Shown: positions 15,247-19,986 of the stretch, one piece after another
Position numbering within the stretch: position 1 is the stretch's first letter
Layout of the letters: each line of letters opens with the position of its first letter
Source of the DNA: a virus
Taxonomy: Duplodnaviria > Caudoviricetes
Virus record (IMG/VR): IMGVR_UViG_3300030098_002885
Coordinates: 1-59,850 of that record
Length of the DNA: 59,850 nt
Strand: one strand, 5' to 3'
Position numbers and translations under genes: made by a program
Notes under the pieces: model-generated
What the model was told of the DNA's origin: nothing
Seen by the model: only the letters and a program-made list of their open reading frames with translations
The model's database searches: none

Positions 15247-18239
15247 TGCCTCGTAAGCTATTTCCTTACGGTAAGTTCCTCGGCTTGGATTCGATTACCA
15301 GCTTCGACAACATGAGCGAGCGTTACCAGCACATATTGAGTAACGCTTATGTAGATTTTAGAGGACAAGTACACAAAGGCCCCGGCTTCACGGGCGCACC
15401 AAACTCCGCAACCTCAGGTGTTAGTGGTGTTGTTGCGGGTGCGGAAGACACACTTTCTTATACCTACAGACCAAGTGGGGCTAGCGTAACAATGCCCTCC
15501 CAAATGGGTACATGGGCAGAGGGTGACGCTAAAGGTAAATTTGCTTACTCCCACTGCACTGTAGTTCACACAAGGAATAACATCCTTCGGGGCTACTTTG
15601 GTGGTGTCTCAAGATGTATCTTTCACCAAACGAATTCTTCGGATTACGATGATATCTACACCTTCATTACATGGGCAGTTAATTATCTATACGGTGGGGC
15701 AAATAATACAATTACTCTCGCCGCTAGTGGACAGAATCACGGACTCCAAAACGGAGAGAAGGTCTATTACCTACCCCTTGGCACAACTTCCAGTGGTGAG
15801 GATCAATTACCGCTGGTGCGGTATCTCAATCTTATTGTCGGTAAAACTTATTATATTTGTAATAGGACTGATGAGACTGTCCAACTGGAAGAGACTCCCA
15901 GCGGTGGAGCTATCAGTAATATTGTTAATGCCTCCTACGACAGCCCGAATGATGCCCATGCTCTAATTCCTTTTGAGCGAAGTAGTATATGGTATGGGGA
16001 GAATGAGGCTAACTTTAATACAGGGACAACGAATAGGTTTAATTATTCTTCTTCTATCCCCGATTTTTATATAGGGGATTCCTCCCGTATCGCTGGGTAT
16101 GAATATCAGTGGGTTGAGTTTCAAGACCTTCGCGGAGATGCTACAGGGAATTCCAAGTCTTGTGGCATAGAGTGGAACTGGGTTACTGCCGCCGCCAATT
16201 CTGCGGCAGAGTCATCCTCTGATACGACAGGGTTCTACCACGGCTGGTCTGATTATACTTCCTCAAAGACGCTTGTTCCTATCAATTACCACCCCCCTGC
16301 TTCTGCTCGCTTCCTTCGTGATACTTATTTCTTTATGCGTGGATGGGACCCCATTATGTATGTTGGGGGAACGGCTGATACATCAACCGGGACCGTCAAC
16401 CGCTGGCGGTATGCCCGTAACAATGTCGAGATGACGTATGTCATTGGGGAAATCTCTGCGGGGGGTGTATGTACGGAGAGTACAACTACCATAGGAAACA
16501 CGATAGCTGATGGACAGAAGTTGACGGTGGGTAATTATCTTGATCGGGATGACTCTGCCACAGGCTTCACGGCTAAAACAGGTCTTGAACCCGACATGGT
16601 TTATACGGTCTCTGACTTTGCCATGAGTGGTGACCAAGCTACGTTCCGTTTAAAAAAGCCAGACGGAAATTACTTTTCTCATGTAGCAAACACTAGTGCC
16701 GCTTACTATGCCTCGGTCACTCTCTTAGGGGAACTTGGAAATTTCCCAAAGGGGGGTTCTGCTGTTGTGATCCAAGACAGACTGGTTGTTGCTGACCTAA
16801 TTGGTACTGGTGTAAATAATTCACGAAGGGACACTGAACTTCACATTAGCGCATTAGGGCGGATTGACGATTGGAGAACTAACACCAGTGGTGGGGATAC
16901 GGCTCTAGCTACGGATGGGGCTGTCATTGATGTTCGTAACCAATTCCAAACCCGCGACAGGATCGTCGGCCTTGGTGTATTAGAAGGGGACAAGCTAGTC
17001 GTCTTTGGGCAGAACGAAATCTTAGTTTATATTACAGACACAGACATCAATAAGTGGATATTGGCTACTGACTTCCGTGTGAACATTGGGTTGTTTGGAC
17101 GTAATACAGTTGTCAACGTAGGACAGGAACTTCTCTTCTGTAGTAAGTATGGCATCCACACTCTTCGCCGTGCAATGTCTGGTTTGACGCTTGAGAGTAA
17201 ACTTCTATCCGCGCAGATAACGCCTTTATTTACGCAACGAGTAGCAGAGTGTCACCCCAATACGAATGTCGGTAAGTATAATGATGAGGACACTTCCGAC
17301 TCCTTTGATGCCTCATTTGGACCCGGCCTACAACTTGGCTCGGTGGCGAATAACCTACCAGCATCCGATGCTTCCTCTCAGACCACCGAGCTAGTTGATG
17401 CAACTAAACTACACGCCAACGGTACACCTATACGCGATGGCTTTGCTAACTGGCCTTTTGCTTACTTAGAACCTCAAGCGTTCTTTGATGCGGATATAGG
17501 AATCTATCATGTGTTCTTTCCCGATCCTTTAGAGCCGCATAAGAAGGCCTCTAGTATCTCTATGACCTACCAACCCAAGCCCACTGGTCAGGCTATCCAT
17601 ATTAGTTTTTCTTCTTCTCCTTCTTCCCATGAAGGTCCAACTTGCGGGTCATATATGCAAGTTATGGCGGATGAGTATCGGTATGACCGTACTAACCCAA
17701 CTAGCGGCGAGGTTGTATCCCAGTGGTACAACAGTGGTGTGGCAAACACTGTCACGGGAGCAAACTATTATGCGCTATATACGGGAACTGATTTAGAGGA
17801 TACCAGCGCAGTCTCCCAGTCTTACTCTGCCTCTGGTTTATTCGGTAAGTTTGGTAAGTCCCAAGGCTTCGATTTTAGGACACCTACCCTCTGGCAAGGC
17901 ACACCAGATACTTATAAATATTACAAAAGATTCGTCTTACGGTGTTGGCAAGACGAAGGAATTACGACCTCCCCCAAAGATTATGAAGCTACGCTTACTT
18001 TAAAATTTTATGATGAAGCTAATAATCTACGGGACACTCGTATAATCACACCCCCTCCAAAAGATAGGGTTGCAACCTACGATGCTGGGACAGGGGATAC
18101 TAATTTTACGGGGGTAAGACCTGTTGAAGTTCCACTAGCTATCAGAGCTAAAGGTCTTAGCGTACAGGCAACTACAGCGGCTGGGGTAGAAGGCCAAGTT
18201 GTGATTACTGATTTTGGCTTAATAGTTGATACAAAGTAA
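15246..18239 (+). CDS. Probable tail nozzle (tail tubular B-like beta-propeller)
   Basis: 997 aa, beta-rich; N-terminal LGLD...NAYVD..G.VHKGPG; QDRLVVA and KLVVFGQNEI blades; C-terminal KYYKRFVL. Confidence 0.7.
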   Translation: MPRKLFPYGKFLGLDSITSFDNMSERYQHILSNAYVDFRGQVHKGPGFTGAPNSATSGVSGVVAGAEDTLSYTYRPSGASVTMPSQMGTWAEGDAKGKFAYSHCTVVHTRNNILRGYFGGVSRCIFHQTNSSDYDDIYTFITWAVNYLYGGANNTITLAASGQNHGLQNGEKVYYLPLGTTSSGEDQLPLVRYLNLIVGKTYYICNRTDETVQLEETPSGGAISNIVNASYDSPNDAHALIPFERSSIWYGENEANFNTGTTNRFNYSSSIPDFYIGDSSRIAGYEYQWVEFQDLRGDATGNSKSCGIEWNWVTAAANSAAESSSDTTGFYHGWSDYTSSKTLVPINYHPPASARFLRDTYFFMRGWDPIMYVGGTADTSTGTVNRWRYARNNVEMTYVIGEISAGGVCTESTTTIGNTIADGQKLTVGNYLDRDDSATGFTAKTGLEPDMVYTVSDFAMSGDQATFRLKKPDGNYFSHVANTSAAYYASVTLLGELGNFPKGGSAVVIQDRLVVADLIGTGVNNSRRDTELHISALGRIDDWRTNTSGGDTALATDGAVIDVRNQFQTRDRIVGLGVLEGDKLVVFGQNEILVYITDTDINKWILATDFRVNIGLFGRNTVVNVGQELLFCSKYGIHTLRRAMSGLTLESKLLSAQITPLFTQRVAECHPNTNVGKYNDEDTSDSFDASFGPGLQLGSVANNLPASDASSQTTELVDATKLHANGTPIRDGFANWPFAYLEPQAFFDADIGIYHVFFPDPLEPHKKASSISMTYQPKPTGQAIHISFSSSPSSHEGPTCGSYMQVMADEYRYDRTNPTSGEVVSQWYNSGVANTVTGANYYALYTGTDLEDTSAVSQSYSASGLFGKFGKSQGFDFRTPTLWQGTPDTYKYYKRFVLRCWQDEGITTSPKDYEATLTLKFYDEANNLRDTRIITPPPKDRVATYDAGTGDTNFTGVRPVEVPLAIRAKGLSVQATTAAGVEGQVVITDFGLIVDTK

Positions 18240-18254
18240 GAAAAACCTTATACT
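18226..18254 (+). promoter_or_regulatory. Sigma70-like promoter TTGATA-N17-TATACT upstream of the acyltransferase/ejection genes
   Basis: Exact 17-bp spacing spanning the end of the nozzle gene. Confidence 0.6.
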
Positions 18255-18839: not shown

Positions 18840-19986
18840 CTGGCGTAGACCGATGTGGACGGACAATCCACTTCAGAAGCCGTGGGAAGAGTTAGGCTTT
18901 AATGAGTACGAGGCTAGACACTGTTGCTTTGGGTCTGACGGTGGTGAAGATGGTGGGGCTGATGACCAAGACGGTGGCCTCACTGCTGAAGATACTTCTG
19001 GTTCAGTTACAGGTACAGATGCAAGTACCGAAGCTGATGGTCAGGAGATGGATGACTTCGATGCTTATGGAGAAGCCTACACTGACGAACACTCAGCCTC
19101 TATGGGTAACGAGAGTGCGACTGAAGGAGAACAAGGCGAGGAAGCTGGTCTAACTAGTGTCTGGGACCCCGAGACAGGTAAAGAGTACGGACAACAACGC
19201 AGTGAAGGTTTCTGGGGAGGTATGGAAGTTACAGACCCCACAAAGAGTAGCTGGGGCGGTAAGGTTCTTGACGCTTTTCTGAGTATCTTTAAGACTATCC
19301 TTGTAACCAAAGTTCCAGCCCTAGCTATCCCTATAGGGTTGTATAACATATCTAAAGCTAAGACTGTGGGAGAGGCTATACCTAGTATCATTGGTATGGG
19401 AACGATGCTTCCCGGAAATGTGGGTAAGGCGTTCTCCAACGTAAGCGCGGTCTTAGGTGCGGCATCAGCGGCTAAGAAGGGAGCCGACTTTGTTACAGGC
19501 GATTTATTAGATAAGCCTGACCTTATGGAACCTGTAAATCAAATGATGGCTGGTGTTAATCGAAACCTAGGGCTGAATACCCCGAACCCTGCTCATATGA
19601 ATATTTGGGGAGAACTCGGTATTAGAGGTCCTAACGATGGTAGTGGTCAGGCCCCTCCTCCTTCCTCTAGTGGTGGTACTTCTACAACAGGGGCCAGTGA
19701 TCCCTTTGGAGGAAACTACGGGTCAGGTGATGACTCTCCCGACCCAGAACCGATAAAGAGAATTTTGGCAGAAAACGTACCAACACGGACATCAACTCCG
19801 TTGATGACGAGTTCAGTCTCGGAGACCATGCCCTTGAGTATGACCTCCTTCGGTGATCCTGAGGGCAAGAGACTTCCGTATGGTATGACTAGCCCCTTCT
19901 CAGGGGTGACTGATAGTTTGGACGGAGCCTCTATTGGCTCCTTATATGGGTCCCCTAGAGCGGGACGAATGAGAGCGGCGGCATAG
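18832..19986 (+). CDS. Probable internal virion/ejection protein 1
   Basis: Leader ending HCCFG, acidic tract, then Gly/Ala-rich hydrophobic segment; lies after the nozzle. Confidence 0.55.
   Translation: MFDWRRPMWTDNPLQKPWEELGFNEYEARHCCFGSDGGEDGGADDQDGGLTAEDTSGSVTGTDASTEADGQEMDDFDAYGEAYTDEHSASMGNESATEGEQGEEAGLTSVWDPETGKEYGQQRSEGFWGGMEVTDPTKSSWGGKVLDAFLSIFKTILVTKVPALAIPIGLYNISKAKTVGEAIPSIIGMGTMLPGNVGKAFSNVSAVLGAASAAKKGADFVTGDLLDKPDLMEPVNQMMAGVNRNLGLNTPNPAHMNIWGELGIRGPNDGSGQAPPPSSSGGTSTTGASDPFGGNYGSGDDSPDPEPIKRILAENVPTRTSTPLMTSSVSETMPLSMTSFGDPEGKRLPYGMTSPFSGVTDSLDGASIGSLYGSPRAGRMRAAA

Follow-up and report, generated by a model that had tools for sequence, protein, structure and literature searches.

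The DNA analysed here, called the window throughout, is the complete 59,850-bp genome of a tailed marine virus (IMG/VR record IMGVR_UViG_3300030098_002885; CheckV completeness 100%). Our subject is a gene on its plus strand at 18324..18839, which encodes a 171-amino-acid homologue of the HlyC/TAAT acyltransferases. An earlier note, made from the sequence alone, had placed this open reading frame (ORF) in the HlyC family, and profile searches bore this out. At a Pfam threshold of E ≤ 0.1, HlyC (PF02794) was the sole family returned for the protein (E 5.1e-24; 85 bits against a cut-off of 25), with residues 42-161 aligned to profile positions 4-120 of 127 (117/127 positions). The same scan returned no N-myristoyltransferase (NMT) domains. 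The protein also matched phrog_20210, a family whose function is not assigned, and phmmer aligned it to ApxC (4whn) with an E-value of 4e-8. It is the one HlyC match in the whole record. As the note had proposed, the fold was compared with that of ApxC. An AlphaFold2 model built from a 99-row alignment had a pLDDT of 82.4 and a pTM of 0.74, and its top Foldseek matches in the PDB were the three chains 4whn_A/B/C of ApxC (E 1.6e-7 to 5e-7; TM 0.60); ordinary GNAT acetyltransferases came next, starting at E 6.5e-4. The best matches in BFVD, a library of viral structures, are named HlyC and come from uncultured phages. These results confirm that the ORF encodes a genuine HlyC/TAAT-family protein with the GNAT-like TAAT fold.

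Residues ~1-35 form an N-terminal extension that is specific to the window's clade, is missing from other homologues and was poorly modelled (pLDDT about 50-70). It holds an invariant C-G-C-G-K (residues 23-27; 18390-18404) in 5/5 aligned members, which may serve as a metal knuckle or be acylated by the enzyme itself. Among the weaker fold matches in BFVD (E 0.1-0.2) were 134-amino-acid uncharacterised proteins of the phiKMV-like phages Pantoea LIMElight and Pectobacterium PP90, and a Podoviridae protein named 'N-myristoyltransferase, N-terminal domain' also matched weakly. These are leads to GNAT-like small proteins in the virion modules of other podoviruses.

Upstream of the HlyC homologue lies a 997-amino-acid ORF on the same strand (15246..18239), which is of tail or nozzle type by position, is kept in the window's clade and gave zero sequence matches in Pfam, PHROG and the PDB. 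The end of the HlyC homologue gene, ATGTTTGA, has 8 nt in common with the start of the next gene (18832..19986, plus strand), in agreement with the overlap given in the earlier note. A Shine-Dalgarno-like stretch, GGTGTGAGG, precedes this start, and the two genes are predicted to be translationally coupled. The note had also given the HlyC homologue a promoter of its own. A sigma-70-like match on the plus strand (TTGATA-17-TATACT; 10/12 matches) is present at 18226..18254, where it spans the stop codon of the 997-amino-acid ORF, but two such sites were seen in the region against 2.7 expected in shuffles, which is not above chance.

The overlapping gene encodes a 384-amino-acid protein, a candidate substrate or client of the enzyme. 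It is followed, all on the plus strand, by genes for a 487-amino-acid protein with a Met-Gly start and a conserved Gly-rich N-terminus, likewise a candidate substrate (19994..21457), for a 234-amino-acid protein of no family, in the size range of gp14-type ejection proteins (21468..22172; table in PMC8954989), and for a giant protein of 3315 amino acids that is possibly internal to the virion or ejected (22172..32119). From their sizes and their position after the terminase, portal and capsid genes, these four genes probably encode virion proteins. The earlier note had gone further and called them ejection-type genes, a name that found no family assignment: none of the four had a Pfam match over the cut-off, to T7_gp14 or related families or otherwise, and the PDB sequence search gave no match to known ejection proteins for the 487- and 3315-amino-acid proteins. 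Two hints came from PHROG, namely a weak 'DNA ejection' match of the C-terminus of the 487-amino-acid protein (phrog_21132; E 0.0067) and a match of the C-terminus of the 3315-amino-acid protein to the 'virion structural protein' family phrog_30152 (E 9e-10). The latter protein had zero PDB sequence matches; a sub-threshold match to glycosyl hydrolase family 17 was seen at its residues 1063-1137. The 384-amino-acid protein belongs to no Pfam, PHROG, NCBIfam or PADLOC family, and naming the neighbours by PDB sequence (997-, 487- and 3315-amino-acid proteins), NCBIfam, PADLOC and Atlas gave no usable name.

In line with the note's statement on RTX toxins, a search of the complete genome for the RTX repeat (PF00353) found none; no search was aimed at type I secretion families. 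No acyl carrier protein (ACP; PF00550) was found there either, and the acyl donor would therefore have to be the host's.

The active site has a Tyr in place of the catalytic His of the known enzymes. In the ungapped phmmer alignment, the window sequence C-P-H-Y falls on S-P-L-H of ApxC and the Asp of W-I-M-D on that of W-F-I-D, which agrees with the change noticed earlier. Tyr53 thus occupies the position of the catalytic His (ApxC His24, CdiC His37), with His52 one residue before it, and D122 that of the catalytic Asp (ApxC Asp93, CdiC Asp107). Of 154 unique homologues from phage contexts (phage and metagenome loci), none has His at the His position, which holds Tyr (132), Trp (12), Phe (6) or a gap (4); the acid position holds Asp (78) or Glu (74) in 152/154. 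In the 153 closest library representatives, the His position holds 107 His and 37 Tyr. In a FastTree phylogeny of 195 dereplicated sequences, the window protein fell among 66 sequences that form one clade (support 0.785), made up of all 49 locus-derived sequences and 17 representatives. The position is Tyr in 53 members of this clade, Trp in 6, Phe in 3 and His in 4. In the sequences compared, the altered motif is a trait of the whole clade and not a peculiarity of the window.

A Tyr acting as the acid is the usual arrangement in CoA-dependent GNATs. In the direct-attack model of TAATs, the Asp deprotonates the Lys and the His protonates the leaving ACP thiolate (PMC8510554). Under this model, a Tyr could stand in for the His, and Trp or Phe could not. 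The same source reports residual activity for ApxC H24A and CdiC H37A.

We surveyed the gene neighbourhoods of related HlyC homologues, one of the checks suggested earlier. When 50,697 records of cultured phages were searched by tblastn, the window protein matched only four Pelagibacter phages; pelagiphage homologues score 55-62 bits on PF02794. A pattern scan of IMG/VR for pelagiphage-type relatives found at least 165, of which 80 were kept; a second IMG/VR scan gave at least 489 stretches, and 45 more loci came from a metagenome scan. Three classes could be told apart among the 88 foreign loci of the first sets, several of which are one contig fetched twice. In 33 podovirus-like loci, including HTVC115P and two loci of the window's own clade, a protein of ~700-1000 amino acids is followed by HlyC, a protein of ~400-450 amino acids, small genes and then proteins of ~190, ~520-640 and ~1350-1450 amino acids. 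The 37 siphovirus-like loci, to which HTVC112P belongs, have the order tape measure, tail protein L, HlyC and a protein of ~930-1100 amino acids, with a 1-nt ATGA overlap between HlyC and the large protein, which is J-like, as its matches to 'central tail fiber J' of 740 other phages show. The remaining 18 loci, HTVC103P and HTVC104P among them, carry HlyC in the early or replication region, followed by a ~100-amino-acid acidic protein, SSB, primase and polymerase. The survey supports a link of phage HlyC homologues to virion genes.

The same linkage recurred when single neighbour families were counted. HlyC lies directly upstream of the ~420-amino-acid polybasic protein of the pelagiphage-type loci in 35/51 IMG/VR loci and directly upstream of the J-like gene in 66/75 loci, and the pair of HlyC and polybasic protein was present in 36/36 pelagiphage-type metagenome loci that have a downstream gene. 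In tblastn against the same 50,697 records, one member of the polybasic family matched only HTVC103P, HTVC104P and HTVC115P, three of the four records matched by the window protein. The two genes therefore co-occur even when they are unlinked: in HTVC104P, the ~420-amino-acid protein (gp60) directly follows the ~700-amino-acid protein in the structural module, 18 kb from HlyC. Polybasic loci lacking HlyC were also sought. Fourteen had no adjacent HlyC, on contigs 11-68% complete, and the 68% one has HlyC elsewhere; a true HlyC-minus group was not found among the polybasic-protein loci. The 487-amino-acid window protein and one gp15-sized pelagiphage protein had no tblastn match in the same phage collection.

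Control siphophages that lack HlyC (slur01, Vibrio phage 1222) have a DUF6950/NlpC-P60-like protein just before J, and locus L262 has an ordinary GNAT there (PF00583; E 1.4e-4), in front of a J-like protein that starts Met-Cys. This slot thus takes one of three occupants, an HlyC homologue, a DUF6950/NlpC-P60-like protein or an ordinary GNAT (L266 899-1333, L268 932-1333 and L262 2438-2890). In the early-region loci (L001 9432-9755; L021-L037), the HlyC gene overlaps that of the ~100-amino-acid acidic coiled-coil protein by 4-8 nt, and every inspected copy of this protein contains G-K-K-I-A-E-L-E, a Gly-Lys motif of the type acylated in HlyA (PMC8510554).

Nearly all of the polybasic and J-like proteins linked to HlyC in these phages have a Met-Gly start. 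Members of the ~420-amino-acid polybasic family begin with Met-Gly-Ser, continue with an amphipathic stretch rich in lysine, and also have a conserved [IVL]-G-K and one hydrophobic segment. Met-Gly was found in 26/26 unique pelagiphage neighbours of this family, in 36/36 metagenome loci and in 49/50 loci whose start is intact; the one exception is an ORF call with Met-Gly at its third and fourth codons. In HlyC-linked J-like proteins, Met-Gly leads into a hydrophobic helix; of 27 unique N-termini, 24 have this start and the other three are Met-Ser, and in the second scan Met-Gly was seen in 66/66 J-like proteins with HlyC upstream. Nine J-like proteins from cultured phages that lack HlyC include one with Met-Gly (lambda), against four Met-Pro, two Met-Ala, one Met-Ser and one Met-Lys. 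Over all fetched loci, 122/784 unique N-termini are Met-Gly, nearly all in HlyC-linked families; each family is one clade, and these counts reflect few independent events. J-like proteins of HlyC-less phages often start M-P-(P)-A-I-I before a long hydrophobic run. A strict Met-Gly rule was also considered for the gp15-sized proteins and dropped: the start is common in the IMG/VR loci, but those of HTVC104P and HTVC115P start Met-Ala.

The window's clade has four known members: the window, L005/L270, L143 and the 59,756-bp L271. Their gene order is a 239-amino-acid protein, one of ~950-1000 amino acids, HlyC, an M-F-D-type protein of 384-549 amino acids, an M-G-type protein of 477-487 amino acids and one of ~235 amino acids; at the last place, L271 has a 235-amino-acid homologue of the window's 234-amino-acid protein. 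The 384-amino-acid protein, which does not start with Met-Gly, is conserved in its first 35 residues (invariant K16 and R-H-C-C-F), in its one hydrophobic segment (145-173) and at its C-terminus, and also has an acidic Gly-rich low-complexity stretch. Its two Gly-Lys sites, G-G-K-V-L and V-G-K-A-F, were examined and rejected as acylation sites, neither lysine being kept in a 54%-identical homologue. In the 487-amino-acid protein, the Met-Gly start is present in 4/4 clade members at 34-77% identity, and a conserved Gly-rich N-terminal domain of ~130 amino acids has invariant K6 and K13. From these patterns, the candidate substrates in the window are the 384-amino-acid protein, with its hydrophobic segment and K16, and the 487-amino-acid protein, with its N-terminal Gly, K6 and K13. 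A complex prediction for the HlyC homologue and the 384-amino-acid protein scored 0.00 with a poorly folded partner, and it counts neither way.

With hhalign, no homology of the 384- or 487-amino-acid protein to the pelagiphage polybasic family was found, nor was any found between the 997-amino-acid protein and the ~700-amino-acid protein upstream of the pelagiphage HlyC. Because the flanking genes are not homologous, the gene order shared with the pelagiphage loci is positional only. Since its neighbours are not detectably homologous, we count the window as a fourth case, independent of the others, in which a virion module holds the enzyme.

On the plus strand of the window genome, genes for the large terminase (7417-8748), the portal (9014-11257) and the major capsid protein (12802-13992) precede two ORFs of 150 and 239 amino acids that lie between the capsid gene and the 997-amino-acid ORF. 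A 2040-amino-acid protein with repeated matches to tail spike and fibre families (32127-38249, plus strand) stands back to back with the 3315-amino-acid ORF. DNA polymerase, helicase, exonuclease and ribonucleotide reductase genes are on the minus strand, a primase gene lies on the plus strand near the genome end, and an amidase gene is at 42767-43207. A 505-amino-acid AAA-type ATPase on the minus strand (4106-5626) matches phrog_249, 'porphyrin biosynthesis' (CobS-like; E 2e-38), and adjoins a 691-amino-acid protein of phrog_1576, whose function is not assigned. Because no tape-measure, tube or sheath family was found in the window genome, the phage is likely to be short-tailed.

Several known systems offer points of comparison. 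With the RTX TAATs (HlyC, CyaC and ApxC; PF02794; 4whn), the window protein has in common the Pfam family, the fold and the Asp of the catalytic dyad, and its gene adjoins, and is predicted to be co-transcribed with, that of a presumed membrane-active protein. It differs from them in the Tyr that replaces the catalytic His, in its place in a phage virion module, in the 35-amino-acid N-terminal extension, in a genome without RTX protoxin, RTX repeats or ACP gene, and in a neighbour without a conserved Gly-Lys. CdiC is a TAAT homologue that lipidates Lys1467 in the receptor-binding domain of class IV CdiA (PMC8510554). Here too a TAAT member stands beside the gene for a substrate, in the window a candidate one, and the substrate of CdiC is a non-RTX protein that engages the outer membrane of another cell; the basic context of the CdiA site resembles the polybasic neighbour in the pelagiphages. 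CdiC, however, is bacterial and has the His37/Asp107 dyad, whereas the window protein has Tyr and a virion context, and its acylating activity is putative.

The earlier note had also drawn an analogy with T7 gp13 (PF11090), an internal virion and probable scaffold protein. It holds for gene position, since both are small genes between a large tail gene (gp12 in T7) and the genes for internal or ejection proteins; the T7 gene has its own promoter upstream. The analogy does not extend to sequence: the window protein has no PF11090 match, and hhalign gave a probability of 6% for the 99-row HlyC alignment against gp13. The note's remark that gp13 is often a predicted acetyltransferase found no support in these comparisons. 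In eukaryotic viruses, N-myristoylated entry proteins begin with Met-Gly, act on membranes and are set free during entry, and the NMT that modifies them has the GNAT fold. The phage loci resemble this arrangement in the Met-Gly start of the linked virion proteins and in the GNAT-like enzyme, which here is virus-encoded, belongs to the TAAT branch and has no NMT Pfam match.

We propose, with a probability of about one half, that the window protein, with host acyl-ACP as donor, acylates an amine of a virion protein encoded downstream and so aids insertion into the host envelope. The enzyme would be a phage-specific, GNAT-like variant of the TAAT/HlyC family, expressed together with virion genes. 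It would move a fatty acyl chain from the host's acyl-ACP onto an amine in at least one of the virion proteins whose genes follow directly, and the lipid would help the modified protein to enter or anchor in the host envelope at genome delivery, comparable to the action of CdiC on CdiA. In terms of the direct-attack model, the conserved Asp or Glu would be the base, and the clade-wide Tyr would take over the role of acid from His and give a proton to the leaving thiolate. The family membership, the fold, the residue pattern, the gene linkage and the co-occurrence are all observed, whereas catalysis, acyl donor, substrate and a role in entry are what we infer from them. Counted in favour of the proposal are the family and fold, the retention of the acid residue (152/154) and of Tyr (132/154), the residual activity of the ApxC and CdiC His-to-Ala variants, the precedent of CdiC and CdiA for a non-RTX substrate aimed at the envelope, the 8-nt gene overlap, the linkage of HlyC pairs in other loci, the unlinked co-occurrence and the lack of an alternative RTX substrate on the phage genome.

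A more specific and rather speculative version, which we regard as unlikely, follows from the almost universal Met-Gly starts of HlyC-linked proteins. Tyr-type TAATs would then fatty-acylate the N-terminal Gly, after removal of the Met, of membrane-penetrating virion proteins in marine phages. The candidate targets would be the polybasic ~420-amino-acid internal protein, the J-like tail tip and the 487-amino-acid window protein.

Several observations weigh against the acylation of virion proteins encoded downstream. None of the 154 phage-context homologues has the canonical catalytic His, and 18 of them carry Trp or Phe, neither of which can donate a proton. The Gly-Lys lysines of the 384-amino-acid protein are not conserved, and the 'ejection' identity of the downstream genes comes from position and one weak PHROG match. 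The evidence from pelagiphages transfers to the window by analogy only, because the neighbours are not homologous, and 18/88 foreign loci place HlyC in the early or replication region beside an unrelated ~100-amino-acid acidic protein. The residue changes would also fit a non-catalytic pseudoenzyme, in which the TAAT fold is a binding module that acts as chaperone or scaffold for the hydrophobic virion protein made next. The gp13-like position after a large tail gene, with gp13 itself being a 'probable scaffold protein', and the translational coupling to a hydrophobic, largely disordered 384-amino-acid protein would suit such a role. Yet the acid residue is kept in 152/154 homologues and the Tyr in 132/154, a retention that would not be expected of a drifting pseudoenzyme, and the His-less ApxC and CdiC variants are partly active (PMC8510554). 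There is also no homology to T7 gp13, and phages of the HTVC103P/104P type have HlyC in the early region, far from the supposed client. We regard a pseudoenzyme as improbable.

The early-region loci speak for a target on the host's side, for instance an envelope protein or some other host amine, acylated for takeover or superinfection exclusion, in which case the place in the virion module would be incidental. CdiC is another example of a non-RTX use of the family (PMC8510554), and no substrate was pinned down in the window. Against a host target stand the tight and repeated juxtaposition, with start/stop overlap, with two unrelated virion protein families and the genome-wide co-occurrence with the polybasic protein; a late-gene position also suits modification of a virion part better than takeover, and we give this explanation still less weight than the pseudoenzyme. 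The target could instead be a virion protein and the group a small one, for example acetyl from CoA as in GNATs, tuning charge or stability and not membrane affinity. A Tyr acid is usual in CoA-dependent GNATs, an ordinary GNAT occupies the same slot at L262, and Foldseek lists GNAT N-acetyltransferases too. However, the sequence scores as HlyC and not as one of the Acetyltransf families, and ApxC is the best structural match by four orders of magnitude. Transfer of a small acyl group is the least probable of these explanations in our view, and transfer of a fatty acyl chain to a virion protein is the reading that we favour.

Little is understood of the way in which tailed phages bring their DNA and proteins through the Gram-negative envelope. 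Our full-text literature searches, in which supplements were not covered, returned no study of phage HlyC function and only a figure-legend label 'HlyC' in a pelagiphage preprint (10.1101/2019.12.14.876532), and a term search of a review of ejection proteins (PMC8954989) found acyl, acetyltransferase and myristoyl all missing. What appears to be new here is a phage-specific Tyr-type TAAT branch that is tied to virion proteins, with a putative function. The system is abundant, the at least 165 and at least 489 IMG/VR stretches amounting to hundreds of marine phages, to which four cultured SAR11 phages are added. With the clade-wide change of His to Tyr, the mechanism proposed for TAATs could be tested on a naturally occurring variant. 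If our proposal is true, a lipidating enzyme for tail-tip or internal proteins would be a post-translational step in virion assembly and a new principle of membrane penetration, and the TAAT family would reach beyond toxins and contact-dependent growth inhibition (CDI) effectors. Acylation of the N-terminal Gly, if it occurs, would give bacterial viruses a parallel to the myristoylated entry proteins known from eukaryotic viruses, made by a GNAT-like enzyme that the virus itself encodes.

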